Assembly (NCBI GenBank): GCA_012295275.1
Contig: CM022676.1
Location: 17,298,001-17,362,000, forward strand
Reading direction: 5' to 3'
Length of the DNA stretch: 64,000 nucleotides
From: Chrysomallon squamiferum
Lineage: Eukaryota; Animalia; Mollusca
In this document: positions 2 to 41,336 of the stretch, piece by piece
Numbering within the stretch: position 1 is the stretch's first letter
How the letters are laid out: the number at the start of each line of letters is the position of its first letter
The notes under the pieces: generated by a model
Seen by the model: the letters and a program-made list of their open reading frames with translations, nothing else
Told to the model about the DNA's origin: nothing
The model's database searches: none
Translations under genes and position numbers: made by a program

Positions 2-3000
2 GAAGCAGCAGACGATGAGGATGAGAGCCACAATGGCGTTCCTGTTCTGAATCTGAACAAGTGGACCCAGCCAGAGACTCTGAAACTGGAGGCGGCTCAG
101 TTCAAGGCGTTTCAACAAGCCCTGACCAAAGAATTCGTCCTCATTCAGGGCCCTCCAGGAATGGGAAAAACATACGTAGGACTAAAAATAGTAGAAACTT
201 TACTCAGAAACAGAGACATCTGGAAAGGAGACGGAGAAAATCCCATTTTAGTTCTGTGTTATACAAATCATGCCTTGGACCAGTTCCTTGAAGGAATCCT
301 CGAGTTTGAGAAAGAAAATCTCGTTCGAGTTGGAAAAAGAATTAAGAGTGAAAATGTTAAAAGTTATGAAATCAAGGAAATGCGGAAAAACTTTTATATT
401 CACGGACAAAATTGCGACGAGTTGAAAACAAATTATACTGGGTATCAGGAACGTCTCCTTGGGAAAAAACAACGACATGAACTGCTATATAAAGGAATAG
501 TGAGAAATCTGTATCTGAGAGCTCATGTTAAAGAGGCACACTACGACCAACTCTTACATAGTACTTTTAGTGAACGGTACCTACTTGTATGGCTCGGCAT
601 ACTTATTCCTGTTCCAAGAAAAGGAAAAAATATATATACATTCCACGGCAGTTCTGAAAAATTTGATGATCATCAATGTTTAAAGCGACCAGACAACAGA
701 AAACACTATAAATATTTGACAACTCGGTCTGATATTTTGCTCATTGACTTCGACACGGTTTTTAGAGAGATTTCACACAGTAAAAGTTCTGTTTTGATCA
801 GAAACATGAAGTCACGGTCGAGGATGTCAGAAAGAGAAGCTGACGCAGTAGAAGATATCTGGTCACTCTCACCCAGAAATCGGTGGCGTCTTTACAGGTT
901 GTGGGTGCAACATCTGAAAGAGCAAACTGAGTCAGAGATAGAAGAGCTGCAGGAAAGAGTCAGTGCTGCTGGAGAAACATACAGAACGGCGAAGCAGGAC
1001 GCGGACCAGAGAGTGATGAGAAGATGTTCTGTGGTAGGAATGACAACGAGTGCTGCTGCTCGTTATCAGAAGGTTTTAGAAAAAATAAAACCAAGAATCA
1101 TCATCATCGAGGAAGCTGCAGAAGTTCTGGAAGGCCACGTGATTGCATCACTGAATTCAGGATGTCAGCATCTGATTCTGATCGGAGACCATCAGCAGCT
1201 GCGACCAAGTCCCACTGTTTACGCACTCGCAAAACGATATAACCTGGAGTTATCGTTATTTGAACGAGTGGTTAACAACGGCTTGGAGTGTGTGTGTCTT
1301 GAGCAACAGCACAGAATGCGGCCCTGTATTTCCAGAATCATGAAACACATCTATCCTCATCTCAGAGATCACCCTTCTGTTGAGAATTACCCGGATGTCC
1401 TCGGTGTGTGTAGCAATGTATTTTTCATAAACCATTGTGAAAATGAAGAAAAAAATGACGAGCTCGTAAGTCATTTGAACGTGTTTGAAGCGGAATGTAT
1501 TATAGCGCTCTGTCGCTACCTCCTGAAACAAGGTTATCATCCAAAGGAAATCACAGTTTTAACTACGTATTCAGCTCAGGTCGTCTACCTTAAAAAGAAC
1601 ATGAAAGACAAAACATTTTTAGGTGTCACTGTCACAGATGTTGACAATTACCAAGGAGAGGAGAATGACATCATACTGCTGTCTTTGGTACGCAGCAATC
1701 TGGAGGGGAGTATTGGCTTTCTGAAAACAGACAACCGAGTGTGTGTAGCTCTTTCCAGAGCTAGAATGGGACTTTACGTGATACGAAACTTTACCCTGCT
1801 CGGTCAACACAGTAAATTATGGGAAACTATTATTGACGATTTGAAATCGACCGACCAACTGGGAAATGCTCTTGGTCTTTATTGTCAAAATCACGTCAAT
1901 CACGAAGGAGTAAAAGCTGCGAAAGCAGAAGATTTCCGTTTGGTTCCTGAAGGACGCTGCAGAAAGCAGTGCACGTACAGACTGAACTGTGGTCACGTGT
2001 GTGAACTGCCGTGTCATCCAGCTGATCCACGTCATCTGGAATACAAATGTCAGAAACCGTGTGAAAGAATTTTGTGTGAATTTCAACATAAATGTCCGCT
2101 TCTCTGTTTTGAAGATTGCAGAGAGTGTGTCGCTCCCGTTACCAAGGTGATACCAGCGTGTGGACAGAAACAAGAAATTCCTTGCTCTGTCGATGTCAGT
2201 ACAATCAAGTGCATGCAGCTAGTAAAGCATATTGGTTTGTACTGCAGACACGAAATTGAGGTGGTTTGTCATAAACAAGACACCGCCGTTTGTAATGCAA
2301 AATGCCTGACCGTTCTAAAATGTGGTCATGAAATTGAAGTTGTTTGTCATGAACGAGACAACGCCATTTGTAATGTGAAATGCAGCACCGTTTTGGAATG
2401 TGGTCATGAAAATGAAGTGCTTTGCCATGAACGAGACAACGCCATTTGTAATGCAAAATGCCTGACCGTTTTGGAATGTGGTCATGAAAATGAAGTGCTT
2501 TGCCATGAACGAGACAACGCCATTTGTAATATAAAATGCAGCACCGTTCTGAAATGTGGTCATATTTGTCGTGGTAGTTGTCACGAATGTGTTCAAGGTC
2601 GACTTCACGTTGCCTGCAGGGAGAAATGCAGGAAACGTCTGCTGTGTGGACACGAATGTGTCAGTTACTGTTCTACGTGTCCACTTTGTCCTCTGCCGTG
2701 TGAGAACAGCTGTGTCCATCTGTCCTGTGAAAGGTCATGTCGTGACCGCTGTACAATGTGCCGTGAAAACTGCGAGTTCACCTGCAAGGGAAGGAACATT
2801 CGTAGACGATGTTGTGATGTGTGGAATATGCCACGCTCCAATAAGCTGTGCATGAAGAACCTGTCGTGTCAGCACAGATGCATTGGTCTGGTAGGAGAAA
2901 AGTGTCCTGATCTTTGTCGAGTCTGTAACAGGGATGAAGTGAAAGCTTTACAGGCTGATACACGAAATTACTCTTTGTTTGTGCAGCTCGAGGACTTCGG

Positions 3001-3647
3001 ACATATATTTGAGGTGCAAGCTCTCGACGAGCTGATGGAGTCGAAATCGAACACAATCCAGTTGAAACGTTGTCCACGCTGTAACGTGCTCATTAGACAT
3101 AGTGGAAGATATAGAGACGTCATCAAACAGACGTTACTGGATGTAGATTATATCAAGCTTGAATTAATAAAGCAGGAAAGAAAAGACTATTGCGAAAGAC
3201 AAAGTGTAATCAGTTTGCGTCAGATGCTTATGGCTCTAAAAAATAACTGTCGTACGTTTAAAACATATTTTCGTAAGATGGGGATCAGTGAACATGATAA
3301 AGACGTGGATCGTTTCCGGACATGGATATTGAAGCACAGAAGAATATTTACGAAGCAGGAGGAATTCGATGCAGACAATGAAACAAAAAGACTGAAACTG
3401 ATAATCGATCTAAAATCAGCTTCAGACGACGCCAACGAGTCACAGAAAATCACAGACAATACAAATGATGTTACTGAAATAATTGAACAGTTCGCTATGG
3501 ATGGAAATGCCTTTACTCCACAACGTGAAGAAATAGTTAAATTTCGGGCTCCTTTCCTTCCTTCAAGTGAAATATCTCTTCGTTACGTCTCCACAGACAA
3601 AATTACCATGAATTTCAGTACGGAAGGCTGGCTGAAATGTCAAGCAG
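2..3647 (+). CDS. ZNFX1: NFX1-type zinc finger-containing protein 1-like (SF1/Upf1-like RNA helicase, NF-X1 zinc fingers, RING-like region); large exon, 5' end outside the window
   Basis: The frame is open from position 2 (EAADDEDESH...FQQALTKEFVLIQGPPGMGKTYVG), so ATG161 lies inside Walker A (149-172) and is not the start. Helicase motifs: CYTNHALDQFLE, IIIEEAAEV, LIGDHQQLRP, QHRM, VDNYQGEENDI, NRVCVALSRAR. These are followed by C-x-CGH zinc-finger repeats and IQLKRCPRC. The exon ends at donor GCAG|GTGAGA (3648) within GWLKCQAG. Confidence 0.95.
2240..2570 (+). repeat. 78-bp (26-aa) coding tandem repeat of a zinc-finger unit, about 4 copies
   Basis: CNAKCLTVLKCGHEIEVVCHERDNAI / CNVKCSTVLECGHENEVLCHERDNAI / CNAKCLTVLECGHENEVLCHERDNAI / CNIKCSTVLKCGH, near-identical at DNA level. 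Confidence 0.9.
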
Positions 3648-3860
3648 GTGAGAACAATGTATTTGTGTATCTCTGTTTTTAATTAAAAACGTATTGATGT
3701 CTGTCTGTAAGTTGACATATCTAAAGCAACGTCAAATGACATTTTAGTAATATCAAAATATTTTGTATTTCCTATTAAATTATTACATTTATATATCTTT
3801 TTTTTAACTGATTCACACCTTGTCAAAAATTACAATTCTAGAATCACATTTTTGTTTTAG

Positions 3861-10287: not shown

Positions 10288-13200
10288 TTATCTATAACTG
10301 TCTTTACCACGATGCTCCTGTAAATACAAAATAATTTCCCTTTTGTTAAAATCAAACCTGCAACTCATAGCTTTATCTAGAGGAGTTTCACCATTGGAAT
10401 TAATAGCATTTACATCAACACCTTTCTCAATCAGTGCCATCACAATTTCTATATTTCCATTTTCAGCTGCTAAATGTAAAACAGAATTGTTATCTTTGTC
10501 TGTCAAATTAGGATCAGCTCCATGTTCCAGTAAATAAAGAACTACTTGATGGTTTTTATCATTCAAACACGGATCAAAGTAATTTTTTGTATACTTAACA
10601 GCTGTAAAAAGAGGAGTCTTACCTTGGCTGTTTTTAACATTTACATCAACATCTTTTTCAATCAGTGCCATCACAATTTCTATGTTTCCAGATTCAGCTG
10701 CTAAGTGTAAAACAGAATTGTTATTACTGTCTGTTAAATTAGGATCAGCTCCATGTTCCAGTAAATACAAAACTACTTCATATTTTTCATGATTCAGAGA
10801 TCGATTATATTCACTTTTATCATAATTAACAGATGTAAGAAGAGGCGTTTCACCTTTATTGTTTTTAACATTTACATCAACACCTTTTTCAATCAGTGCT
10901 GTCATAATTTCTATAATTCCATATTTAGCTGCAAAGTATAAAATGGAATTGTTATCTTTGTCTGTTAAATTAGGATACGCTCCATGCGCCCATAAACACA
11001 AAACAATTTCCCTTTTCTTATAACCAAACCTGTAACTCATAGCTTTATCCAGAGGAGCCTCACCATTGGAATTAATAACATTTACATCAACACCTTTTTC
11101 AATCAGTGCCATCACAATTTCTGTATTTCCATATTTAGCTGCTAAGTGTAAAACAGAATTGTTATCATTGTCTGTTAAATTAAGGTCAGCTCCATGTTCT
11201 AGTAAATAAAAAGCTACTTTACATTTTTCCTCATTCAGATATGGATCAAAGTCATTTTCCACATAATTAACAGCTGTAAAAAGAGGAGTCTTACCTTGGC
11301 TGTTTTTGACATTTACATCAACACCTTTTTCAGTGAGTGCCATCACAATTTCTACATTTCCACATTTAGCTGCTAAGTGTAAAACAGAATTGTTATCATT
11401 GTTTGTTAAATTAGGATCTGCTCCATGTTCCAGTAAAATAAGGACTACTTTACATATTTCATCATTCAGAGATGGATTATATTCATCTTCCTCATAATTA
11501 ACAGCTTTTAAAAGAGGGGTTTCACCTTTATTGTTTTTAACATTTACATCAACATCTTTTTCAATCAGTGCTATCACAATTTCTGTATTTCCACATTCAG
11601 CTGCTAAGTGTAAAACAGAGTTGTTATCTTTGTCTGTTAAATTAGCATCAGCTCCATGTTCCAGTAAATACAAAACTACTTCAGCTTTTTCATCATTCAG
11701 ATATGTTTTAAATTCACCTTCATCATATTTAAGAGCTACGGTAAGTGCAGTTTCACCTCTGTTGTTTTTAATATTTACATCTGCACCTTTTTCATACATT
11801 GCTGTCACAATTTCTATATCTCCACATACAGCTGCTAAGTGTAAAACAGAACTGTTATCTTTGTCTGTTAAATTAGGATCAGCTCCATGTTCCAGTAAAT
11901 ATAAAACTACTTTACATTTTTCATCAGTCAGAAATGGATGAAAGTGATCTGCATCACAATTAACAGCTGTAAAAAGAGGAGTTTCACCTGTACTGTTTTT
12001 CATATTTACATCAAAGCCTTTTTCAATCAGTGCTGTCACAATTTCTATATTTCCATACTTAGCTGCTAAGTGTAAAACAGAATTGTCATTATTCTGTATT
12101 AAATTAGGATCAGCTCCATGTTCCAGTAAACAAAACATTACTTTACATTTTTCATCATTAACTGATGAATCATATTCATGTCCATCATATTTAAGAGCTA
12201 AAGCAAGAGGAGTTTCACCTTCACTGTTTTTGATATTTATATCAACACCTTTTTCAATCAGTGCTGTCACAATTTCAATATTTGCACATTTAACTGTTAA
12301 GTGTAAAACAGAATTGTTATAATTGTCAGTTAAATTAGGATCAGCTCCATATTCTAGTAAATACAAAACTACTTTACAGATTACATCAGTCAGAAATGGA
12401 TGTTTATCTTCATCTTCATCTTCATCATAATTAACAGATGTAAAAAGAGGAGTTTCACCTCTGTTGTTTTTAATATTTACATCAACACCTTTTTCAATCA
12501 GTGCTTTCACAATTTCAGTATTTTCTTCACTAGCTGCTAAGTGTAAGACAGAATTGCTATCATCATCTGTTAATTTAGGATCAGCTCCATGTTCCAGTAA
12601 ATACAAAACAACTTTGTTCTGTATATACTTAATAGCTGTAAAAAGAGGAGTTTTACCTCTGTTGTTTTTAATATTTACATCAACACCTTTTTCAATCAGT
12701 GCTTCCACAATTTCAATATTTTCTTCACTAGCTGCTAAGTGTAAAACAGAATTGCTATCATCATCTGTTAATTTAGGATCAGCTCCATGTTCCAGTAAAT
12801 ACAAAACAACTTTGTTCTGTATATACTTAATAGCTGTAAAAAGAGGAGTTTTACCTCTGTTGTTTTTAATATTTACATCAAAACCTTTTTCAATCAGTGC
12901 TTCCACAATTTCAATATTTTCTTCACTAGCTGCTAAGTGTAAAACAGAATTGCTATCATCATCTGTTAATTTAGGATCAGCTCCATGTTCCAGTAAATGC
13001 AAAACAACTTCGTTCTGTTTGTACTTAATAGCTGTAAAAAGAGGAGTTTCACCTCTGTTGTTTTTAATATTTGCATCAACACCTTTTTCAATCAGTGCTG
13101 TGACAATTTCAATATTTCCTTGATTAGCTGCTAAGTGTAAAACAGAATTGCTATCATCATCTGTTAAATTAGGATCAGCTCCATGTTCCAGTAAATACAA

Positions 13201-16200
13201 AAGAACTTCGTTCTGTTTATACTTAATAGCTGTAAAAAGAGGAGTTTCACCTCTGTTGTTTTTAATATTTGCATCAACACCTTTTTCAATCAGTGCTGTC
13301 ACAATTTCAATATTTCTTTGATTAGCTGCTAAGTGTAAAACAGAATTGCTATCATCATCTGTTAAATTAGGATCAGCTCCATGTTCCAGTAAATACAAAA
13401 CAACTTCGTTCTGTTTATACTTAATAGCTGTAAAAAGAGGAATTTCACCTCTGTTGCTTTTAATATTTACATCCACACCTGTTTCAAATAGTGTGGTCAC
13501 AGTTTCTATAATTCCATATTCAGCTGCTAAGTGTAAAACAGAATTGTTATCAGTTTCTGTTAAATTAAGATCAGCTCCTTGTTTTAGTAAGTATAAAGCT
13601 ATTTCTGGTCTGCTATGATTTAAGGAGACAAGAAGAGGCGTTTCCCCTTTAGTGTTCATTACATTTATATCAACACCTTTTTGTATTACTTTTTTCATTA
13701 CATCTATGTCAATTTGAGATGCTATGTGCAATGCTGAATTTTTTTCTTTGTCTGTTATATCAGTATCAGCACCATTTTCCAGTAACAACAAAGCTATTTC
13801 CTTTCTGTGTGTCACTGCTTTTACAGCTTCACGAAGTGGAGTTTCTCCCTCACTGTTTACCGCATTAACATCAGCATTTCTCTCTATCAGTGATTTTAAC
13901 ATATCTAAATCACCACGCAGAACTGAAATGTGGAGAGCTGTGTCTGAAGGCAACAATTTCAAACAAGGTCTATGTTTCAGTATAATTTTGTCACGAAGCA
14001 AGAACTTTGGGGTAGGTACCATACAGTTTAATGCAATTTGCTTTTCAAAGAACTGAATCAATTTCTCCTTGACAGCTACATTCACATTAGGATCAGCACC
14101 TTTATCAAGAAGACACTGAACAACATCTATACCGTTAAACATCACAGCTACTTTCAGTACTTCACTTTTCTTCCAGTTGTTCTCATCTGTATCATTTCGT
14201 CTCTGCTCAATGAGAAAATTCACTGTTTCAGTAGATCCCCACATTGCTGCTGCTAAAAGTACTTCATCTCTGTTCTCATCATTTAAACAATCAGGTTTCA
14301 GTTTTACTATTTCTTTTATAACATTTGAAGTACTCTGACCAGCTGCAATATTAGCAATATATTTAATTTTGTTTATTATTTCACTGGTAACCAGCTTCTT
14401 AAATAGATGTATGACAGAGTTTTTAAAACTTGTGTAACTTACTTGACTATGGAACTTAACCAATAACAGTTTCACAGCTTTTTCTTTCATTTCACTGTTG
14501 TTTTTCTCTTTGTCTACCATGTCAGCCAACAGACAGGCAATGTTCATGTTTTCTGAATAAATAGAAAGACATAACAAGTGGGAAAACAGAGTCAACTTCA
14601 TCTCCTTTTTATACTGTAACAATTGTTTCAGTATGGTAGCACTGTCTGTTTTAGAACATGCTGCTGCACTGAATGTATCAAATGTTGGAATGACACCTGA
14701 TTCTAGCAACGGTTTCACAATATATTCATCACCAAACAAACAAGAAATATCCAAAAGTTCTTTTTTTAGATATGTTAATTTCATTTTACACAGATTTTCT
14801 GCGAAAAATCGTGACAATGTTCTTAGTCCATTAACAATACACTCACTTGGAACAGATGTTGAATTTATTAATTTGTTTTCAACTTTCAAATCACTATCAA
14901 GAAGAGATGGTCTATTGCTGAATATTTCATTAGCAATGTTTATATATATGAATGATACATAAACAGTTCGAAAGTTTTTTTCAGAAACATCTATAAATCG
15001 TCTCCGATTTACATCTTGATGAATTCCACGTAGTCTTTGATGCAGTATTTCAGATGTTTTGCCATAAAAGTGTTTTTCCTCTGTCATATACTTCACAAAT
15101 TCTTCATCTTTCAGTGACGGATGTGAAATAATTTTTCTGAAATTGTCTGATGCCAGCAAATCAGTAAATCTGCGAGCAAGAACATCAAAGCAGTCAGGTG
15201 TCACAGTCATTGTAATGTGACTTTTGTTAGACACTCCAGGTGTCACAACATATTCTAACAACATGGAGACAGGGCACACTTCTAGCAACTCTGCTGCTTT
15301 CTCTGGAAACTCTGATGAAAAGATCAGAAACACAGAGTCAAACATTGACTGATGAATAAATGTATATTTATTGTCACAGCAGTTCAAGTAGGTACCACAC
15401 ATTACATCAGCTGTTTTCTTTATATCTGTGAGATCTGTGTTTTTTACACGCTGACAGACTCGCTCTAGCAGCCTTATTAATTTCATTATTTCACTGTCAA
15501 TGCCATTTTTAAATGGGCACAGTGAATCAATGTTGAGACTGCCTTCCTGAAACATTATCAGCAGTAGAACCAGGTAATTAATTTGTGAAGATTTATCATT
15601 TTTCAAATTTTCCAGCCCTTGTCTCAGATAGTCTACAGGTTTCTCAAAAAACTTGACTCCTCTTTTTTGTGCATCGCTTGAATTAAAATAATAGACACAC
15701 ACCTGAGGAAATCCTAACTCTTTACATGAATTGCAAATAACACAACACCTTATATCAGTTTTATCCATTGTAACATTCTTTTGTTCAAGGTATCTGTTTA
15801 GAATTTGTTCTTTTTCATCATAATCCAGACAACAATCATCACTCTGCAGATCAAGAACATGTTTCTCATTAAACAGACCAAATTCCTTCAAACTAGTTTC
15901 ACTTTCTGAAAATATTTGTTTTCTTAAAGTAATAATGCATTTCAGAGAACCTTCCTGAACAAGATTCCAGATCACTGGAAATTTGAGTTTCCATGATTCT
16001 ATAAAATCTGAAACAAGATTAGTCTTACCAAATATATCATCAATGAGAACAACACATTTCTTATTTTCAGATAGAGAGATGTCACTGAAACCAGTGTGAT
16101 GAGTCAGCAAGTAAGATTCTCTTTTTTCTTCATTTTCTATCTGTCTCATCATTCTCAAAGCAAGAGTTGTCTTTCCTGAACCTGGACTTCCTACTACAAT

Positions 16201-16301
16201 CACAACACCGTTCTGCTTCAAAAGTTCAACACCTCTTTTCTCTGCTCTTGTTTCAACATAGACTCTCCAGTCAACTGAGTTTAACACTGACCTGGTACAC
16301 T
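10288..16301 (-). CDS. NLR-like STAND NTPase (nSTAND3-type) with long ankyrin-repeat array; ~6-kb terminal exon
   Basis: Uninterrupted ~2000-codon frame. Motifs: YVETR, Walker A VIVVGSPGSGKT (16191-16168), Walker B CVVLIDDIFG, IITLR, GFPQ, FIHQSMFD. A helical region and more than 30 ankyrin repeats (GETPL..., NSVLHLAA...GADPN) follow. The acceptor GATACAG| places the exon start at 16301 (phase 1), so the GTG at 16287 is not the start. Confidence 0.93.
10310..13600 (-). repeat. High-identity ankyrin array: 198-bp double-ANK units, ~230-bp units with loop insertion, 672-bp higher-order duplication
   Basis: Period 198 (e.g. 12601 vs 12799). Period 672 (GAGGAGTCTTACCTTGGCTG at 10611 and 11283; AGCTTTATC at 10369 and 11041). 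Confidence 0.92.
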
Positions 16302-16569
16302 CTGTATCACAGCATTAAAAAACAAACCATCTATTATTAATTATTTTGAACATATTTTACCATTTAGATATAAAAAATATAATTTTTAACTGGTTATCAG
16401 AGGTGAACTTCTTAAAAGAAAAATGCAATAGTTTGTTTCATAAGTTGAGTTCAGCAGAATTTAATAAAGATAAAACGTTGTCACAATTTTAGATGGTATA
16501 AAAGTAACGAGATGATTATTTTGTTATTTATGAATATCTTTGGAAATTGTACAAATAATAATAATAATA

Positions 16570-16618
<49 letters not shown>

Positions 16619-16621
16619 TAC

Positions 16622-16654
16622 CTTTGATATTGGATGCTTTCACATCAGTCTTTG
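16622..16654 (-). CDS. 33-nt coding exon of the STAND-ANK gene (TKTDVKASNIKE across junctions)
   Basis: Minus strand ATTATTTCAG|CAAAGACT...ATCAAAG|GTATTT; phase 1-1, in frame with the large exon. Confidence 0.7.
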
Positions 16655-17363
16655 CTGAAATAATATAGAAATAAAACAAGTAAATTTGTGTTATTGATGA
16701 TGAGTAAAAGAAATGATTAAAGTGATCTGTACAAGTACAGTAAACATGTAACATTATTATTAAATCTTTGTTATTTATTTTACTACAATTATTACTACTA
16801 TTACCAAAACTACTGCTGTTGTTTCTTATCACTAATGCTATTTATTTATTGTTATTGTTCATATTATTATTACTATTATTACGATTATTATTATTATTAT
16901 TATTATTATTGTTGTTGTTGTTGTTGTTGTTGTTGTTTTTGTTGTTGTTGGTGGTGGTGGTGGTGTATGATTATTGTTGTTGTTGTACCTTCTTCTGTAT
17001 ATTAGTATGCACATGTAATAATAATGACAGGTAGATAGTCCTGTTTAATTCATGTATATATTAACAGTTTAAGATTAAACTCTAGTTCAGTTCAGCATAC
17101 ATAAACTGTGTCACTGTCTGAACATATTTGTGTGTGTGCAATGCATGTCTGCATATATACATGTATGTGTATGTATGTGTTCAGTGTATGTGTTATATAG
17201 GTATATATTTAAATATGCTTGTATGTATTATGTATATGTATGTATGAGCATGTTTCTTTGTTGTTCAGGTCACACTGATAGAAATGTACTAATGTCTACT
17301 GTGATGTGTATTCTGTTATTTATTAAGCAGGTAGAAAAAAGGAAACTTTCAGTTTTAACTTAC

Positions 17364-17477
17364 TGATGTTAATAACTTGATTTCCAAACACAACATTCCT
17401 ACAATTAGACACAGCCTGGTAATTCTGAACTGTGTTGATATTTACACTGTGTTCTACCACTGGTTGTGTTCTTCCAG
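17364..17477 (-). CDS. 114-nt coding exon of the STAND-ANK gene encoding a RHIM-like, N/Q/V/I-rich segment
   Basis: Minus strand TTTTTACTCAG|CTGGAAGA...AACATCA|GTAAGT; phase 1-1, no stop; GRTQPVVEHSVNINTVQNYQAVSNCRNVVFGNQVINI. Confidence 0.8.
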
Positions 17478-17814
17478 CTGAGTAAAAATAAATTATATAA
17501 ATTCACAAATTAAACAAATAATGTTTTAATCCATTCTTATCTACATATAGAGATATGACAGTGTACAGTATTAATACAATGTGTCCTAGCAGTATTAATG
17601 AATATAACAATAAAACTGTATGTTTTAATGAATGTGTTTGATATTGTTAACTAATTATGCATAAAATAATCAAACAATGACAAGTGGTTTTTCTAACAAA
17701 AAGCAGACAAAATCTTTCAATTGTTAATTTATTATAAATATAAAACAAACCAAGTATCACTTTACAAAGAATTGATATACTTCATTAATAAAGATATAAA
17801 TAATGGTGTCATAC

Positions 17815-17857
17815 TTTCTGAGGAACAAATTTCTGAACTCGCTTTTTTGTCATCCAT
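17815..17857 (-). CDS. Probable start-codon exon of the STAND-ANK gene (MDDKKASSEICSSE); exon spans 17862-17815
   Basis: Minus strand TTTTTACATTTCAG|CCAATATGGATGAC...TCAGAAA|GTATGA. ATG at 17857 has A at -3 and G at +4. The phase-1 end joins the next exon in frame. Further upstream coding exons are not excluded. Confidence 0.65.
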
Positions 17858-17895
17858 ATTGGCTGAAATGTAAAAAATAACATAATTTTAAAATA

Positions 17896-18050
17896 GAAGA
17901 AAGAAAATAAATGTTGTATTCACTGTTGTACGGTGTCAGACATAAAATTAAGGAAAATTCAGATAAGAAAAAAAAAAAAAAGAAGAAAAAAAAAAAAAAC
18001 ATTCCCACCACTTCATGGTCTAATTTCCCACAGACAGTGCGTACTATTTC
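17896..18050 (-). mobile_element. Degenerate Nin-type (mollusc) SINE remnant
   Basis: GAAGAAAGAAAATAAATGTT...TACGGTGTCAGACATA...CACTTCATGG...CCCACAGACAG resembles, from memory, the reverse strand of the gastropod Nin-domain SINE. It shares motifs with the reverse complement of 46545-46625. Confidence 0.55.
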
Positions 18051-19779
18051 ACATATCAGGTTCAGCTTTTCAAAAAAACTAAAACAGCTCAGACTGCATA
18101 CTCAACTTTTGTTCTATAAATATATTCCTGAAAGTATTTTAAAATAACAAACATCCTCATATTGTAAATAGTGATGTTAGATTGTTATATAAAAATAGTC
18201 ATGAAAACTTAATTATTACAATACTGCTAGTGTGAAAACTTAATACTGTTGTAATTTATTACTCTTACATCACATTAGAATCATTTCACTCAAACATTTT
18301 ATAATAATTAACTGATAATTATCATAAAGCATTTGTAGGATGTTTTCTCAATTGCAATACTAAATGATGTGAGTTATGAGTCCAGCTTTGAATCAGCTGG
18401 AGAACATTTGGGGAGAGTTAGCAGTTTTGTAGCACTGGGACTGACTTTAGTTGACCATTTGACAAATCCAACATTTCACCCTGAGGATGGGTTGGATGTT
18501 TACTTACCATTGGTGATTGATCCCTTTACAACAAATGTAATCTAAACACTCAAAGTAGCATTTTCTTAAACTATTTTAACTCTGCAGCTCCATACTTTGG
18601 AATGATAATTTTTGAAATAAACAGTACTTGGTAATTATGTGACAATAGTGTTATTAAAAAAAAAAAAAAAAAAAATAAAAAATCTTATATCCAGTACTGC
18701 GGTGCTTAACATTTTTTCAGATGTATATTATATTACCATTCTCCTGAGTTCACCTTTAGTAATCTACTCATATTTATATGTATATGTATGCAGTTTAATT
18801 CTTAAAGTATTTCATAATATATTTACTTATTTAGTACCATAAGAAGACTACAATTAAAACATGTGGGATAAGAACAAGTGCAATACTTTATATCAGGGTG
18901 ACAAGACTGTTATATCTGTCAAATAAATAGTATAATTATTCTTATCTGTTGTGTCTGCTTGCAAAAACATACTTTGTGAATTTGTAATCTTGACCACTTG
19001 ATGATTTCATGTTAATGTACAGACACATTTCTTGTGTGGCTGTGTTTAAAACTGTCATTTACAAACCACCAATACAGTAATGATATCTATAAATAGTACA
19101 GCATTCAACCATTAAAAAACTTTCTTTATTTGCTATTTATTTTTAGAGATGATTTCTCAATGCCATATATACAGGTATTTGAAAGAAAAAAGAAAAACAT
19201 ACATATATTAATGTTATTTCATGCAGTTAAGCATTATTCTACAATAATTATAATAATTTATTAATGTTTTATCATATATTCATTCACTTTAATGTAAATG
19301 GTTTTTCAAAATAATGATAACAGTCACTACTCTATTTGTATTTAAATAGAAATCAGGTAGAACCGTCTAAAAATAAAATAGCTAATTTAAAAAAAAGTGA
19401 ATAAATAATAACTTATTAAATAAGAGCTGTAATAGGGTACTACTAATAATAATACATATAAAAACATACTAAAGACCAGGTTAAAATGTTTATGTGCTTG
19501 TGGTATTTAGGACGATGTGACGAATTCACTGTTAAGACATTGTGCACATAAGTGCAGAAAATAAAAAATAAAAAAACAAACATTTGTCTATATTGTGAGA
19601 AGCTAAATAATTTCAATAACGGCGCTACATACAAACACAATTACAAAAACGGAATTAGTTTCATTAAACAAAATAGAAAGGAATTCGAAAATAATACAGT
19701 ATATGAGATAATATTATTATTACATTTTTCATCCGTAACATCCATATACGAGAATTGTAAATAAAATTTCGCTCACAAC

Positions 19780-20190
19780 ACATTTTCAAGTCAGGCTTTA
19801 TGTAACGTTTTTCATGTGAATATATAAAAAATCCTCACACTATAACGACCTATTTGTTAGAGAACTAACTCTGATATGCCTAAAAATAATCAAACAAAGA
19901 ACACTCGAATCGTTAAAACATAATAAATTATAAAATATCATCCGCTTTCAATATGGCCGACTTGTTTCACTTCTGTTTTGTTTACTTTTAGCTATCAGAA
20001 TCCGCCACTGATAAACACGTTGACTGACGTCAAATATCTTACACGTCATCAAGTGTCACTTCTCAGGTTTCAATGTCAGACTAAAATACACAAATCGTGT
20101 TACGAGACATGTACACTCATCTTACAAGCATTTTTCCTTCAAGTAAATTATATTGATTTAATGTAGTTCTATTACTCTGCATTGTTTTTA
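19780..20190 (-). promoter_or_regulatory. Candidate promoter module upstream of the STAND-ANK gene; homologous inverted copies at 35330-35730 and 38330-38930
   Basis: Perfect CRE TGACGTCA at 20025-20032 and IRF-like AGAAGTGAAAC (minus strand, 19974-19964). It lies where CpG-poor sequence gives way to CpG-containing sequence. Function is inferred. Confidence 0.45.
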
Positions 20191-20204
20191 TTTGTTATTA
20201 AATG

Positions 20205-20289
<85 letters not shown>

Positions 20290-20809
20290 TTCAAAAGAAA
20301 AATGAAAAATAAGTGCAGCTATTAGTTTAGAACTATATCGGTGCCAACTATCGGTAATTTCTTAGAAGCGAGTTATTCCTGTTTAATTATTCTACTATTG
20401 ATCAATAAGATCAGATATAAATAAATAGCTTGATAAAATAAAATAAAATAAAATATTTTGAATACATGAATAAATAAATGGAACTAAATAAAGTAATAAG
20501 ATGGATAAAAATATGGCATTAGCTATTCATAGTTCATATGACTTATATTAGAATTATGACGATTATAATAATACTGATGATGACGACGACAACAACAACA
20601 CTAATGGATTTAGTCTAACACTACTTCTAATAACACTCTCACAACAACGGCTGATATTTCTATGCTGCATCTACAAACTGCTGCTGCCACTTCTACCACT
20701 GAAACTTCTACTATTAAATCTACTGCTACCATTATTAGTAGCACAAATATCATTATTATTACTACTGCCACAAATGTATTTATTTATATATTAGATACAC
20801 ACACATATG

Positions 20810-20856
<47 letters not shown>

Positions 20857-22225
20857 TAATAATAATAACAACACAAACAAGAACATACTAATTGTATCGA
20901 GTGCATGTCTTATTTATCTGATGATACTCACATGACCAGTCTATCAAGATACATGCTAACACGTGACTGTTTGTTTCTTATGTAGGTCAGATAAAAAAGT
21001 GTATCACACGAGAACAAAGCTATAGCTGGGTGTTACTTACAACGATCTGACAAATTCATTGTTAATACAGTGTCTGCGCATAAGTGTAAAAAATAAACAA
21101 AAAACGTGTGAAATTATTTAAACTGTGAAAAAATATAAACTTTCAATAACGATGATAAAGACAAACACATCAACAACCAAAGTACTTCCAATAGACAAAT
21201 AAACAAACAAACTCTTAAATAGAAAATAATACAGCTGTACGAGTTAATATTATTATTACGTTTTTATTGGCAAGTTGACTAGACATGATTATAAATAAAT
21301 CAACTTTATCTCAGAACACATTTTTCAAGTCAGGGTCTACATTATATTTAATTCATGTCTATTTAGAAAACCTCACAACATAATGATCAGTGTCCTACCC
21401 ACTTCTAGTTAAGTGATCCTATTTTTCTGTTGTATCGAAACAAACGAACATATAAAAACACTGGAAATAATTACAGTGTCATGGTCAGTGTGTCACGTGT
21501 ACATCAGTAGCAGCGAACATCTTTTTATCTTTACCTTTGTAGATGAAAACAAATACACCAACATTTTATACACTGGCTGAAACATGTGATAGAAAAACAC
21601 GAATGTTACATTAGAAGAAAGGGATCAATGAAAAAACGACAAAAATAAAAAATAAAAAATGAAAGAGGGAGGGAAGGAAGGAAGAAATAAATGTTTCATT
21701 TAAGACTCACTGAACACATTTTATTTGCTGATTTGTGTGCTGCTAAGGACGGCTGAGATAAAACGAGATGAACTCTGTGTGTGTACATCTCACATATATA
21801 TATACATAGATATATACATACATACATACATATATACATATATATATGTATGTATGTATGTATGTATATATTCGTATTCGTATTCACCAAATTATTTGGA
21901 TATTTAGAAGGACAGTGTTAGTTCAGATTTTAAAACATATGACATCCATAGACATTTCTATCAGCACGTAAAGCAATTAAGTTAATGTTCGCTGTACGAG
22001 ATACTGATTTTGTTCTCACGAGGTAAAACTCAATAATCTAAAACTGAAAACACTAACAAAACAAAATAAACAAAAAAAAAACAATCTAAAACCAAATAAT
22101 AATAATTCTACTAATAATAAAAGCACCAGCAATACGGACAGCAATGATAATTATAATTATAAATAAATAAATAAAATTAATAAATAATAACTAAAACTGG
22201 AAAGTATTCCATCACTATGAGTTTC

Positions 22226-22346
<121 letters not shown>

Positions 22347-23732
22347 AATACAGCTTAAATAAAATGAAATGGAATTCTTACCAGGTTGTATATTTTCTAA
22401 GAAGGAGATGACAATCAGGCTGTGTTGCTGTGGAAACCGGGTTTCAGTTGTAAGAGACAAACACACAAATAGTTGATCTAATAAACCCGCTTGAAGAGAA
22501 CTTTGACCATCTCGTGATCGAGATAACAGTCAGGTGAGCTATGCCAGCTTGAAAACAAATCCTTATTTGGTAAACTGATAATTACATACGTCAATCAAAA
22601 CGATTACTAATCATTTATAGAATTTTATCTTTTCTCTTTAACGTGAAATAAAAGAGCCAGGTCCGGTTTTGTATAAATACAGGGTGGGTGTTGTATTTAT
22701 ATATTTACTTTTCAGAACAACAGTTACCTGTAGCTACTACTACTACTACTACTACAATTACTATTACTTCTAATACTGCTAATATATAGTACAACTGCTA
22801 CGGCTTTACTACCACTACTAACATCAATACCATTATTAGTATTATAACTAATTTAACTACTGTTAGTACTCTGGATAATACTACTTCTGCTTCTACCACT
22901 AAAACTACTGCTACTATTACTGCTACTGCTACATGTACTGGCGTTGCTACCACAAACATTACTGCTACTACTGCTACTAATGCTGTTGTTGTTAATACAA
23001 ATCATATTGCTACAGCTTTACTACTATAACTATTTCTACTGCTATTACAAGTACTATTACTATTACTGCTATTATAAGTACTATTACTATTACTGCTACT
23101 ATAAGTATAACAGCAGTAATTATTCTTTCTGCTACTACTACTGTCTTTTAATTTCAAACTACTTTATGATATTTTATTCTTTAACAGTGACAATATCATT
23201 TGTTTAATCTACTTATACATAATTATCTATGTTCAACTCGTTTATAACTAGCTTATTAGTAAAACACTTATTAGTGATAGTATAACCGACTGATCTATTT
23301 TGTGAAGAGTAAAGTTTACTTTGCTGTCTTAAATGTTTAACCTTGAGATAAACTAAATATAATGCCAGCTTTCCACACACAGAAACACACAGAAATACAC
23401 ACACATACACATTCAAAAACAGAAACACAACACAAACTAACACGTAGAAAAGATAAATCAATCAATCAATTAATTAATTAATTAATTAGAACACACATGA
23501 TTGTTTTAGAACAGTGGGGGCATTGTTTTCAACATATTTAATCTCAAATTATTTTATTTATTTATGTATACATATATATACACACATATTTATAGAGAAT
23601 TGACCATAATTGGAAACACACACACACACATGCACACGGAGAAACACACACACATATACTGAAGCATACACATACTCAGACACACATACATAGAAACACC
23701 CAGACATAGGCACAGGGCCTTCTCTTATCTTT

Positions 23733-24618: not shown

Positions 24619-26483
24619 TGGAAAGATCAGAAGAGAATCATACATTATCACACGAGGTAAACCACTGTGTTATGTGGAGACGGGTGTGGATGTACATAAA
24701 TCTCTTTATCAACAGACACGTGCAGTCCATGAACATCTGAATACCAGTTCATATATAATCTCTTCATTTACCTAATATATGATTCACCTGGAGAAACATT
24801 TCAACAAGACACGAGGTGTCAGTGGAGAGGAGCAGAAATTCAAACTTGGATCACAAGACGTACTCCCCAGTATCGCTGTCACATCTTAAACAGCGCGCAG
24901 CTTGATACCAGAGTTTTCTTCCAACACTTTTCTTCTAATATCTCTTTTGTTGACGAACACAACAGTAGTTTTAATTTTATTAAATAGTTAGTTAGTATTA
25001 CTCGCTACCGCTCTGATTAGTACTAAGTTATATGTGTATTGCGTATCCGACAAGGCGTGTGAGTGTGTGTGTGTGTAGACAAACACGCATGTATACACAG
25101 GCAGACACGAACACACATACACACACATAGATCACCGTTTGATATATGCTTTGTTACAAACGCTTTGTTATAAACAATTGCAGCCACGTTAATTATTTGT
25201 CACATTGCATGTTACTGACACGAACACAGATACACAACATAAATCATAATTAGAGAACGGTTTGCATAGTTTAGTTATGTTTTAAAAACAGTTATTACTA
25301 CAAATGGCAGAACAACTCTTACAACTGTTTATTTCCAATATGAAGAATAAACACAAACAGTTTTAAGCATCTGCCAGAATTAGAATCAAATCAAATTTAT
25401 TGAAAAAAAAAATAGATAATAAAGCATGACAAACAGATTAAAAGAATACAGCATATAGAGTCAGAAATTAAAGTATATTAAATATAAAAATCGAGAATGA
25501 GCTCACTGGACAGTGTTTGCAATACATACATACAGACAGTTTACAGCTGACAAGATAACAATATTTGACACTAAAACATAATCACCATTAATTCGTCACT
25601 GAATTTGTTTGCAGAAGATGATCAATCAATTACTATAGACTGTTGGTTTCATAACTTTCTACAGAAAAAAAAAAAAAAAACAACAACGAAAACAAATTGT
25701 TGATGTTCACTATCAACAGAAAACAATACAAAAATGATTTTCTTACATACAAATAAAAATTATTTCCAATATGAATCTCTAAAAAATAGTTTTTTTGAGG
25801 TTTCAGTTTTTAAGTTCAAAGTAAAGTTTCTATCAAATAGAATGAATCACATGGTAATACGTTAAAAAAGAGTAATCAACGTGTCCTGATTCATCATCTA
25901 CATCCTGTGATTATCCTGAGATTGACACTAAAGATTATGTAATTGCGTGTAAATAAATAATAATAACAAAACAAAACAAAAATAAAATAATAATAATAAT
26001 GATAAAAAAAACAGGCATAAAAAATTAAATTATACAATACAGTTAGACAGAACCTGAATCATAATTTTAACTTTGAAAAAGCAATTCATTAATTCAGTGG
26101 AATTAATAGGAGATTTAAAAAGTAACTAACACAAATACACGCTTTTAACAGCTTAGAAATTTATAGGTGAGAATCCCAGCCACTCATTTAACCAGATAAT
26201 TGAAACTGAAGACAACAGTAACGACTCTCATACATATATTCATGTATGTGATGTCAGAAGGTAAAACTCAGTTCTGAAATCAGTTTGGTTCAAAAACTGA
26301 TAGAGCATGTGATAAAGGAACACATCAAAAAATGTTAAAAAGTAAAATGTTCTTGTACATAAGAGGTATTGTAAAGAGCTATTTGTCACTGAAAACAAGT
26401 AATTTTGAACTTAAAGTGATTTCTAAACTGTCCTGTACATCGCCTGAATCTGAGAGATTTGTTCTCAGTTTAGTGTCCTCTCT

Positions 26484-27350
26484 GTTTGAGCTATCACTGG
26501 AACAGTCATCAGATATTTCACACTGTCCACACACTCAACTCTGAGCTATCACTGGAACAGTCATCAAATAGTTCACACTGTCCACACACTGAACTCTGTC
26601 TGAACTATCACTAGAACAGTCATCAGATATTTCACACTGTCCACACACTGAACTCTGTCTGAGCTATCACTGGAACAGTCATCAGATATTTCACACTGTC
26701 CACACACTGAACTCTGTCTGAGCTATCACTGGAACAGTCATCAGATATTTCACACTGTCCACACACTGAACTCTGTCTGAGCTATCACTGGAACAGTCAT
26801 CAGATATTTCACACTGTCCACACACTGAACTCTGTCTGAGCTATCACTGGAACAGTCATCAGATATTTCACACTGTCCACACACTGAACTCTGTCTGAGC
26901 TATCACTGGAACAGTCATCAGATATTTCACACTGTCCACACACTGAACTCTGTCTGAGCTATCACTGGAACAGTCATCAGATATTTCACACTGTCCACAC
27001 ACTGAACTCTGTTTGAGCTATCACTGGAACAGTCATCAGATATTTCACACTGTCCACACACTGAACTCTGTCTGAGCTATCACTGGAACAGTCATCAGAT
27101 ATTTCACACTGTTCACACTGTCTGAACTCTGTCTGAGGAACAGTCATCAGATATTTCACACTGTCCTCACACTGAACTCTGTCAGAGCTATCACTGGAAC
27201 AGTCATCAGATATTTCACACTGTCCACACACTGAACTCTGTCTGAGCTATCACTGGAACAGTCATCAGATATTTCACACTGTCCACACACTGAACTCTGT
27301 CTGAGCTATCACTGGAACAGTCATCAGATATTTCACACTGTCCACACACT
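26484..27350. repeat. 59-bp minisatellite, about 14-15 nearly identical copies
   Basis: Unit CTGAGCTATCACTGGAACAGTCATCAGATATTTCACACTGTCCACACACTGAACTCTGT. Confidence 0.97.
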
Positions 27351-28493
27351 GGACTGTTTCACGTTCTGAACCTGTTTGCATGTTTCTGATCTCGGTTCAA
27401 CGCAATGATCTAGTGTTTTGTTTGTTTCAAATTTGGCAGATACTGAACTTTGTTTGATCTTCTTTACCTGTGTTTACAAGTTCGATTTTTCATCTAGATA
27501 TCTGTTTGTTGTTTCGTTTCTTTCATACTCTGCAGAGTTCTGTTTCGTCAGAGCTGTATGCTCATCTTATAAACTGTGATTAAATTCTTTATTTAAACTG
27601 AATCAATTTCAGAATATTTATTATTCTTATTTTTAACAGGTGTGTAGAAATTTGTAATACGCACGCTGTTGTCAACGTTCGCTTCTGTGTTCATGGTTTA
27701 GATGCCAATGTCAGATTCAAGTTTTCTTCTTCACTTTGTTTTCATTTATTTCAGCTTTGTCCCTGTAGTTTCATTCACGTGACTTTTCTTCATTTTCCTT
27801 TCCTGTTTACTGCATTCTTCTATCTCATCTTCTTTTACGTTTGTTTCTTCATCGATGTTTCAAACCTCCGTTTCTTGTTGCCTGTCCAATTTTCATTTTG
27901 TTCGGTATTTTCAGGATAATATTCAATAAACTTAATGTGTATAAAACCTTCAAAATTGTCATCTGTCAACCCCAAAAATGTGAATGGTATATTGTAATCT
28001 AAATACTACATACTTCAACAATTGCAAACAAACAAACAGTGGGGCTGACAACAGCAAATTTTAAGACGAATGGTGGAACAGATGATACAAACATCATATT
28101 TAACACATTTGTTCTTCAGGGGTTTATAATCAAATCTTACTGATTTGCCATTTGAAAATCCAAGATGGCAGCCATTAATCAAGATGCACGCCAAGTTCGC
28201 CTACCAAAGTTCATTTTCTCTTTATAAATATTTGTAAAGTACAACTACCTCCAGATCTACAAACAAAAGAGTCTACAAATATTTATGATTTACCTTCACG
28301 TCCACACCTTGTGTCTTTCGAAATCGCCATCTTTTTATTATCTTAACATTAACAACAACCCGTACTCAGTGTCTTTAATAATTTTCACTGGACTCGACGT
28401 CATACACGTCAGACACATGTTCATATCTCTGTGTCAGTGTAGACCGTGACAAAGAGGCCGACGTCGTAGTTTCGTTGTACACGGTCACCGTAC

Positions 28494-38679: not shown

Positions 38680-39761
38680 CACTTGATGACGTGTAAAATA
38701 TCTGACGTCACTCGCGTGTTTATCAGTGGAGGATTTTGAGAACCAAAAGTACACAAAGCAGAAATAAAACAAGTCGGCCATATTGAAAGTCTATGATATT
38801 TTTATTTTATTATGTTTTAACGATTCCAGTGTCCTTAATTTATTACTAAATATATCAGAGTTTGTTCTCTAACAAATAGATTATTTAAGTTTTTAAACTG
38901 AAATTAAACTAGGTTACGTGTATCCTGACTTTAGTATGCTGTTATTATTATTGTTAATAGTAGTAGTAGTAGTAGCAGTAGTAACATCTTTACTTCTGTT
39001 TCTGTTACTACCCTAGTAGAGGCATTATTTCTTATTGATATATTTCGCTATTTATTGCTTACTTTATTTCATTTTGTTTTATTTTATTTTAATTTTTCAT
39101 TTATTCTTAGATTGGTGATTGCGGTGATCTACAGCAGTTGAGTCGACAGAGAGAAAATAGTCGCTTAAATAAATTGTCCATCAGCAAGTTTAAATTAGAA
39201 CGTATTTTAAATTGTTTTCTATTTCAAAAATATCGCATCCTGCTATTCTTTTTTTCTTTATTAATATTTTTTGTTCTTTAGTGTTTCTTTTTAGATCTGT
39301 CACTGAGTGATAATTTGGCTGACTTTTCGAGAAGTAAATTGTTATAAATGACCACAAGTACATTGCGATATGAAAACCGTTTCTCTCACAGTGAAATATT
39401 TCTTACCTGACTGACCACACACCTCTGTTTATAATAATAATGATAATAATAATAATTCTTTGTGTCTTCGTAATCAGCATAGTAATCATTACCATAACCA
39501 TAAGGTTTTTCTTTTTTATCCTTTATCTATCCGATGTTTTTCTTTCTTTCCTTATCTTTTATTTATTTATTTATTGATTTATTTATTTTTAGATCTCTGA
39601 TCTCAGTGTTCAGTAGTAGAGGCGTTAAACAAAAAGTAGTCGGATTTTAGAAATTATTTTGATTAATTTTTTATATAAAAAGTGTTTGTTTCGGTTTTGC
39701 AATATGTCCATGTACAGGTCATATGTACAAGGAAATATTTGTAAATTATATTTAGTATGAC

Positions 39762-39802
<41 letters not shown>

Positions 39803-39825
39803 CATCCTCTGTTTCTAGTGAAAAC

Positions 39826-41336
39826 ATGGCCACCTCAACTGCAGTCTCAAGTTGGCAGACAGGGAAGAATCTGATAAAATGCATTGAGCACGTTTTTCTT
39901 ACAAAAACTCACACGGACGTCAGATTTTTAGTTGGGGAACATCAATCTGCTGTCGATGCTCACCGATTCATACTCATTATTCGAAGCGAAGTTTTCAGTC
40001 AGATGTTGACTGGAGAACTTCGCGAAAAATCAGATAGTGTGATATCTGATGTGAAGGCAGAGACCTTCTCAGAGTTTTTAAAGTATGTTAAAACACACAC
40101 ACACACACACACACACAGATACACACAGGCATAGAAACACACGTACGAACCCACTGAGGAAGAGAGACATACATACAGACAAAAACGTTGATAACAATAC
40201 AGTTTTTGTTAGTAATCTAATTATTTTCTAATTAATTAATCTCACATGATTATCTCTCGTTTTAAAGTCTTACTCTATTTTTTTTACACAGATATCTTTA
40301 CACGGATGACGTCTTCCTAACAGGCGACAACGTCACCAGTATGCTGTATCTATCGAGGAAGTACATCGTCACGACACTGGAAGATCAGTACGTACGCTAT
40401 TTGGAGTCGTCGTTGTCGTCACCGAATGCGTGCGTCGTGCTGGAACAAGCTCACCTGTTTGATGAACTTGATCTAAGGAAAAAAACTCTGGACTTCATTT
40501 TGAAAAATGGCGACGAAGTTTTGAAGTCAGATGAAGTCACCGATCTTTGTCACGAATGTCTGGTTGAGATCGTACGATCAGACGAACTGACAGCAGACGA
40601 GAAAAATGTTTTTGAAGCCGCTGTGAAGTGGGCTGACAGCGCGTGCAGGAAGCAAGGAAGAGAGACGAATGAAAAAAACATGCGCTAAGCACTGGGAGAG
40701 GTCGTGAAGCACGTGCGTTATCCATTACTCGATCAGACGTATTTTCTAAAACACGTGACACCTACTCACATACTCACTGAGACAGAAGAACTCAAGATTT
40801 CGAAACACTGGGTGAGCAGTGATGAAGATGTTTCACCTTTTAACTCAAACAAGAAGACTGCACTGAAAACACAGATTAAAATAAACAGGTTTGATGACGA
40901 TGATTACTACTGGACATATTCTAGTGAAGAAGATGAAGCCATTACTTTCTCTGTCAACAAAAACGCTTTACTTCGCGGATTTCAGTTGTACGGTGAACGT
41001 GAACCACGAAACTACGACGTCAGCGCCTTCGTCACGGACACAAGAACAGACGAAATACTGTACGGGTCTACACTGACACAGAGATATGAACACGTGTCTG
41101 ACGTGTATGACGTCGTGTTCAGACGTCCAGTGAAGATTACGAAAGACACTGAGTACAGCTTGTTTGTTAATTTTAAGGGAGACTACTCATTATATGGAGT
41201 TGGAGGTGAATCAGAAATTGTTGTAGACTCTTTTGTTTGTAGATTTTCTGAGTCACACAAATCTAAACACAGTGACAGACACCTTAGTACATGGGTGACA
41301 CACGGACAAATACCTGCTTTGTTATTTTTAGTGTAA
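39826..41336 (+). pseudogene. BTB/POZ-BACK-PHR protein (BTBD1/2/3/6 family-like); coding exons 39826-40082 and 40292-41336; in-frame TAA at 40686-40688
   Basis: Exon 1 MATSTAVSSWQ...TDVRFLVG...AHRFILIIRSEVF...FSEFLK. Phase-2 intron AA|GTATGT...ACACAG|A gives K-YLYTDD. The BACK domain has EKNVFEAAVKWA, then MR*ALGEVVKHVRYP in the same frame. The PHR domain ends GQIPALLFLV*. Confidence 0.88.

Follow-up and report, generated by a model that had tools for sequence, protein, structure and literature searches.

The 64,000-nucleotide window analysed here (positions 17,298,001–17,362,000 of contig CM022676.1, assembly GCA_012295275.1, from the mollusc Chrysomallon squamiferum) carries on its minus strand a gene for a receptor-like protein that combines an nSTAND3 NTPase with a long ankyrin array and, ahead of the NTPase, a short N-terminal region bearing a RHIM-like motif (Table 1). 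Most of the protein is encoded by a single stop-free open reading frame of 2,008 residues (16314–10288), to whose exon three small exons can be joined. All four exons, the first taken from its ATG (17857–17815), have AG acceptors, the first three have GT donors, and all three introns are in phase 1. The joined exons yield a protein of 2,067 amino acids with one terminal stop, and reproduce exactly the N-terminus that a first-pass annotation of the same DNA had derived by splicing three small phase-1 exons in frame onto the 6-kb exon.

This structure can be followed in transcripts. RNA contigs from four of five public runs were aligned to positions 13200–21600 of the window; three of these are RNA runs of one study and the fourth is a run of unspecified kind. 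The joint between exons 2 and 3 (16654–17367) is present in all three RNA runs, and that between exons 1 and 2 (17477–17827, with CT..AC ends) in two of them, X1 and X3. In X3 the last 12 letters of exon 1 are replaced by 36 extra in-frame letters, which come from a paralogue. Loose ends at 16303 occur in two of the three RNA runs, and, once reverse-complemented, they are similar to the end of exon 3. The fourth run spans the introns and contains none of the three joints. Since the likeness of the contigs to the window is mostly 90–95%, the transcript evidence speaks for copies within the family or in other individuals and not for this copy alone; moreover, contig depths and the many paralogous variants point to a multi-copy family. 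All three proposed junctions (17815/17477, 17364/16654 and 16622/16301) were thus seen in near-identical family copies, and the gene is confirmed as real, with four exons spliced in frame.

Table 1. Features of the window discussed in the text, with window coordinates.
Feature	Position	Strand	Remarks
Gene as modelled	17862..10288	-	four exons; ATG at 17857
Exon 1, first coding exon in best model	17815..17862	-	48 nt; AG/GT, phase 1
Exon 2	17364..17477	-	114 nt; V/N/Q/I make up 22 of 37 residues; holds the RHIM-like motif
Exon 3, linker	16622..16654	-	33 nt; AG/GT; joined to exon 2 in RNA
Exon 4	10288..16301	-	6,014 nt; STAND module, helical region, ankyrin array, stop
RHIM-like motif in exon 2	17365..17412	-	core VVFG at 17394-17383
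nSTAND3 NTPase (PF20720)	15784..16260	-	Walker A GSPGSGKT, Walker B LIDD, TxR sensor-type motif
Full STAND module	15073..16302	-	410 residues modelled
Five 66-aa double-ankyrin units	12460..13449	-	
Nine longer double-ankyrin units	10393..12459	-	seven of 77 aa, one of 80, one of 70; variable insert loop
Candidate upstream non-coding exon	22382..22547	-	strong donor; outside the RNA-covered 13200-21600
AAA_11/AAA_12 helicase gene	2-3682	+	open reading frame open at its 5' end, 1,226 aa; tail to tail with the STAND gene
Spliced BTB-BACK-PHR gene	39745-41336	+	head to head with the STAND gene

The NTPase matches the Pfam nSTAND3 family with an E-value of 7e-26 (91 bits against a cut-off of 27.2), and Walker A and Walker B are both intact. 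When the STAND module was modelled with a 46-row alignment, the 410 residues reached a predicted local distance difference test score (pLDDT) of 93 and a predicted template modelling score of 0.91; this model replaced a single-sequence AlphaFold model with a pLDDT of 34. Its best structural match is MalT (Z score 14.8, root-mean-square deviation 5.4, 325 aligned residues), followed by NRC2 (14.7, 3.9 and 274) and an archaeal STAND-TPR protein (14.2, 5.9 and 316). Further matches include NLRP9, NLRP3 and Avs5 among AAA+ proteins, with DnaA at a Z score of 12.9 over about 200 aligned residues. Both the profile match and the fold agree with the nSTAND3 NTPase named in the first-pass annotation, and they confirm the STAND/NLR-like architecture of the protein. 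By analogy with its family, it would be expected to oligomerise upon ligand binding in a nucleotide-dependent manner.

Towards the C-terminus lies the ankyrin array, in which Pfam recognises 30 Ank stretches and 17 unit starts can be placed. At the DNA level the five 66-residue units are 93–98.5% identical and the seven 77-residue units 75–88% identical among themselves, an internal repeat conservation of the kind known from NWD2-type NLRs. The insert loop of the longer units has proportions of nonsynonymous (pN) and synonymous (pS) differences of 0.29 and 0.19, compared with 0.15 and 0.18 in the rest of the unit; as uncorrected pairwise counts, these values are a hint only. Identities and loop alike fit the earlier description of the array as variable and of high identity. 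High internal conservation is, according to the available part of one study, enriched in ATPase-bearing repeat proteins across all domains of life (PMC13449251).

How typical is such a short N-terminus? A search with the STAND region found 1,076 representatives at E ≤ 0.001, 150 of them being listed. Homologues with a named source are gastropod and bivalve proteins, and the closest among those listed (43–50% identity over the STAND region) are from Gigantopelta aegis, which by itself would make a gastropod origin of the window probable. The number of residues before the NTPase in 149 listed homologues is below 45 in 67, many of which are likely truncated models, between 45 and 149 in 37, and at least 150 in 45. 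Among 24 hand-picked homologues with long N-termini, 19 have a Pfam domain in this position (HEPN_DZIP3 in 10, Death, DED, CARD and SAM in two each, PARP in one) and five have none, four of the matches lying below the cut-off. A caspase and a SAM domain were found in two of 15 other homologues, the caspase fusion coming from abalone. To judge by these domains, the N-terminus of the family serves as an effector slot whose content can be swapped. For bivalves, the available part of PMC8195603 describes how proteins with STAND, HEPN, death-fold and ankyrin domains have expanded in particular lineages, RHIM not being included. In a FastTree phylogeny of 71 rows, the window protein and eight Gigantopelta proteins form a nine-member clade with a support of 99. 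None of the eight carries a Pfam effector domain; in two, the gene model begins with the NTPase itself.

Some N-termini have features of their own (homologues are referred to by our numbers, P0002 and so on). Four scallop members (P0055, P0084, P0159 and P0165) share a conserved start segment ending in G[IV]EPNPGP, which we take to be a candidate signature of 2A-like ribosome-skipping peptides; if this is true, the NLR part of these proteins would be released with a new N-terminus. The model of P0002 from Gigantopelta starts with a hydrophobic, membrane-anchor-like segment. Five abalone proteins (P0005, P0007, P0017, P0019 and P0028) have a conserved beta-type N-terminal motif with alternating hydrophobics and no core glycine, possibly a second motif class.

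In the window protein, the region ahead of the NTPase contains a segment resembling a RHIM. Its VVFG core agrees with the definition of a cryptic RHIM, a VxxG core with a conserved fourth glycine (PMC10268257; here and below, the papers are cited for their available parts), a criterion that is weak when taken alone. The motif occupies a dedicated symmetric exon. A recurring pattern, hydrophobic-x-[N/D/H]-[C/S/A]-x-N-hydrophobic-x-hydrophobic-G, is found 36–97 residues ahead of the NTPase in members from Gigantopelta, unionid mussels and scallop. The motif is in register in Gigantopelta P0004 and in both copies of P0013, the first of which begins about 16 residues after Met1 with no domain ahead of it. 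For the match of this first copy to the window motif, p is 0.002. A position-specific scoring matrix built from 12 homologue motifs, the window being left out, assigns exon 2 a score of 18.5 bits, which is reached by 8 of 20,000 shuffles and by none of 146,894 17-mers from the body of the proteins; in leave-one-out tests, 7 of the 12 training rows pass at p < 0.02. Moreover, a search with an eight-row profile against 177,635 PDB sequences gave three matches at E ≤ 10, of which the mouse RIPK3 RHIM fibril (6jpd) ranks second (E 0.66) and has the best single-domain score. The alignment is register-exact on the RIPK3 core and has Asn, Cys, Val, Gly and Asn in common with the window motif. The same fibril is also returned by a 13-row profile, as the last of six matches (E 6.9).

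A mutational scan of RIPK1/3 found hydrophobics at positions −11, −9, −3 and −1 from the core glycine to be essential (10.64898/2026.02.19.706818). Three of these four positions are hydrophobic in the window motif, and the same holds for 13% of exon-2 shuffles. Of 74 linkers, 21 show the three-of-four pattern, where 11.7 would be expected; several of these occurrences are helices of folded domains. The stretch ahead of the motif (17412–17450, minus strand; SVNIN..QNYQAV) is in register with abalone P0092, so exon 2 may contain two overlapping pseudo-repeats.

We propose that the window gene encodes an nSTAND3-ankyrin NLR-like protein which would signal by letting its RHIM-like motif seed a partner, and we rate the chances of this proposal as even. 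Judging by the STAND biology of NWD2/HET-S and Avs5, ligand binding by the ankyrin array would release the STAND module; the released module would then oligomerise, as STAND proteins do, and cluster the exon-2 motifs. Given their resemblance to RHIMs, the clustered motifs would then seed cross-beta assembly with a separate RHIM-bearing partner. The output may be RIPK-type death or an IMD-like NF-kB pathway without death, as the cryptic core fits both. Because RIPK1/3-type proteins have been reported from Mollusca (PMC13506858), candidate partners exist. Extended to the whole group, the proposal would describe a mollusc amyloid NLR family in which the RHIM-like motif swaps with death-fold, HEPN or caspase domains and templates a RIPK- or IMD-like partner in a fungal-style relay; this wider version we put forward only tentatively, as possible but somewhat doubtful.

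A number of observations weigh against the proposed role of the motif. The VVFG core departs from the canonical RHIM tetrad, (V/I)-Q-(V/I/L/C)-G (PMC13506858). Pfam RHIM matched neither exon 2 (E ≤ 5) nor any of 25 hand-picked homologue N-termini (E ≤ 10), in a scan that lacked a positive control and in which HMMER filters drop weak matches; this was the RHIM part of the profile check envisaged in the first-pass annotation. Exon 2 by itself matches nothing in PDB, and ESM Atlas gave no usable match for exon 2 or for the motif region of P0075. The profile rows had been chosen by eye after the window motif, which makes the results of the scoring matrix and of the RIPK3 profiles partly circular, and neither of the two RIPK3 E-values is significant. 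An unbiased de novo motif search gave a different, abalone-dominated motif, with p 0.29 for exon 2; the score of that search (175.6, against 147–158 in eight shuffles) was not used as support, the numbers of seeds being unequal. Among held-out linkers, 8 of 68 reach p ≤ 0.05 and 2 of 68 reach p ≤ 0.01. An a-priori pairwise test gave p 0.016 for the motif; the same test gave p 0.012 for one of six body controls and p 0.026 for the adjoining exon-2 stretch. The window motif lacks the strict four-of-four hydrophobic pattern, which 3 of 74 linkers show (p 0.10). Within the closest clade, the N-terminal segments match in register in three of eight proteins only, and over the tree no significant clustering of motif carriers is seen, 53 of 500 shuffles giving an equally low value. 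In the scallop Argopecten the motif sits behind a DED-like domain (E 5e-5, below the cut-off), hence it is not always an effector replacement. Finally, a search of a protein database with the motif profile, a weak search in itself, returned 11 matches. Seven of these are training rows and the other four are isoforms or additional members of the family, so that the motif was not met on any kinase, MLKL, gasdermin, caspase or TIR protein.

Matches to regular expressions (4 of 83 against 0.8 expected) do not count as independent support, the expressions having been drawn up with the data in view. Tests free of selection bias lend the motif only modest support. The RHIM-like motif of the first-pass annotation thus holds up in its cryptic VxxG core and in its alignment to the RIPK3 core, and departs from the canonical tetrad, with no Pfam RHIM match in the scan made; as for its conservation, gastropod and bivalve relatives share it in register, but they are a minority of the homologues. 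We therefore call the exon-2 motif RHIM-like in the sense of a resemblance, not of a proven identity, and amyloid signalling by it could about equally be right or wrong.

Much of this would also be seen if the motif were a V/N/Q-rich linker or a decayed remnant and the effector-less sensor worked through HEPN-, death-fold- or caspase-bearing paralogues, in a sensor/helper arrangement. Such an arrangement fits the presence of the motif in only a minority of homologues and the fact that neither Pfam nor the de novo search picked it up; it also fits the multi-copy family and the existence of effector-bearing relatives, including the abalone caspase fusion. A mere linker, however, would not be expected to recur in register across gastropods and bivalves, to align register-exactly to the RIPK3 core or to fill a dedicated symmetric exon. 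We regard this explanation as unlikely, though a serious contender.

Another possibility is that upstream exons encode a conventional effector, for example DED, Death or CARD, and that the motif is internal, as in scallop DED-motif-nSTAND3-ankyrin proteins. Exon 1 has a pyrimidine tract and a CAG acceptor 5 nucleotides before the ATG, its acceptor score (6.3) is the highest of the four, and its frame stays open through this acceptor; it follows that at least one further exon lies upstream. Exon 1 is an internal 48-nucleotide exon, and the true 5' end is located farther upstream, beyond the sequence that the model reached. In addition, the X3 RNA match stops about at the exon 1 acceptor (35-letter side), and scallop P0136 and P0046 are short only through their annotated start, longer forms being known. 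Against this, the searches made upstream brought up no effector exon. In a tblastn search of the window with 91 homologue N-termini, only weak or low-complexity matches, and no credible exon, were found outside exon 4. The 31 donor candidates between 17.9 and 30 kb include none that would close a long, open exon in phase 1 encoding a domain, and no joint leads from exon 1 to elsewhere in the RNA-covered region among the joints listed (15 of 129). In the best candidate exon, at 22547–22382, the reading frame of exon 1 is interrupted by stops and contains no ATG; this exon would therefore be untranslated. Moreover, the ATG has A at −3 and G at +4, and all eight closest relatives are free of a Pfam effector. 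We consider an upstream effector quite improbable and a short N-terminus without a folded effector likely. Accordingly, the earlier claim of an N-terminus of about 70 residues without an effector is borne out for the exons found and the eight closest relatives and needs amending in that the 5' end lies farther upstream; the upstream effector exon that was to count against it was found neither by tblastn nor by the donor scan, although exon 1 does have an acceptor of its own.

Positions 19400–21600 of the window, considered as an exon, were rejected: contig depth is high here in all runs, RNA and fourth run alike, and the element, which is present in many copies, has an internal duplication at a distance of about 1.5 kb. 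We read it as a repeat. A metagenome scan with a 21-mer from exon 1 matched a single bacterial contig, by chance.

It is very improbable that the motif, while truly a RHIM-like amyloid, serves self-assembly or acts as a Pirk-like decoy dampening a RHIM pathway. In favour of such a role, the profile search found no partner, the IMD pathway has RHIM-like inhibitors (PMC4262963, PMC13506858), and annotated short abalone and scallop isoforms carry the motif without the NTPase, but intact Walker motifs and a long, internally homogenised, variable sensor array suit an activating receptor. The short isoforms (P0155, P0157, P0160, P0161 and P0164), which keep the motif and in scallop also have a DED-like domain, are possible adaptors or decoys.

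The genes around the STAND gene agree with the first-pass statement that no partner effector is visible: within the 64,000 nucleotides there is no motif-sharing effector neighbour, the neighbours being the helicase gene and the BTB-BACK-PHR gene. The helicase is presumably ZNFX1/UPF1-like, and together with the STAND gene it may form an immune gene cluster. At about 28375–28470 of the minus strand, the translation is nearly identical to a segment of the PHR domain encoded at 41 kb and has no Pfam match; this stretch is likely a pseudogene fragment. Positions 26480–27355 hold a 59-bp minisatellite of 15 copies with 93% matches.

A literature search, with most subscription papers outside its coverage, gave no account of RHIM-like motifs in mollusc nSTAND3-ankyrin proteins. 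Among the matches listed, the nSTAND3 literature comprised only Avs5, fungal NLRs and a mosquito virus, and no mollusc RHIM-nSTAND3 case appears in the available parts of PMC7889193, PMC12881547, PMC12261475, PMC11211578 and 10.1101/2020.01.06.895854. If our proposal is true, it would provide a mechanism for hundreds of snail and bivalve genes now listed as 'uncharacterised ankyrin', and it would tie the Avs5-type bacterial STAND clade to RHIM signalling.

Each part of the window protein has counterparts in known systems. Its NTPase belongs to the same family as that of bacterial Avs5 (Sir2-nSTAND3-repeats; 10.1101/2025.07.08.663546), and the STAND model matches Avs5 with a Z score of 12.3 and Avs4 with one of 11.0. 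However, Avs proteins have fused enzymatic effectors and sense phage, whereas the window gene, an animal gene with introns, encodes ankyrins but no enzyme. Mollusc nSTAND3-ankyrin relatives have the same core but folded effector or adaptor domains, in contrast to the short or low-complexity N-termini of the window clade. The fungal NWD2/HET-S and PNT1/HELLP systems (PMC7889193, PMC12881547) likewise combine a short N-terminal amyloid-type motif, a STAND domain and high-identity repeats. They use NACHT or NB-ARC with WD40 or TPR repeats instead of nSTAND3 with ankyrins, and their effector gene is adjacent and shares the motif, whereas the neighbours here are the helicase and BTB-BACK-PHR genes and the motif is amyloid-like by sequence only. 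A VxxG core with the fourth glycine is also found in the cryptic RHIMs of arthropod PGRP-LC/LE and IMD (PMC10268257, PMC13506858), and phenylalanine at the third core position is common to Drosophila IMD and the window VVFG. The arthropod motifs sit on peptidoglycan/lipopolysaccharide receptors and IMD, with amyloid demonstrated, whereas the window motif is on a STAND ATPase.

A close parallel in overall design is Branchiostoma BF82280 (Kajava et al. 2014, PMC4262963). Like the window protein, it is a STAND receptor from an animal that ends in repeats and has a RHIM-type motif in place of an effector, and both are predictions from sequence. BF82280 has NACHT rather than nSTAND3, and its motif matches the RHIM profile significantly, unlike that of the window protein, which is without a Pfam RHIM match. 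Molluscs are not mentioned in the main text of that paper. Since this lancelet RHIM-NACHT-repeat protein resembles NWD2, the design was already known in animals as a prediction, and its presentation as new to animals in the first-pass annotation was overstated. NLR-coupled amyloid signalling is experimentally established in fungi and bacteria and has in animals been predicted only, from the lancelet; a mollusc family that is transcribed, has many copies and keeps the motif on a separate small exon would provide a testable animal case.

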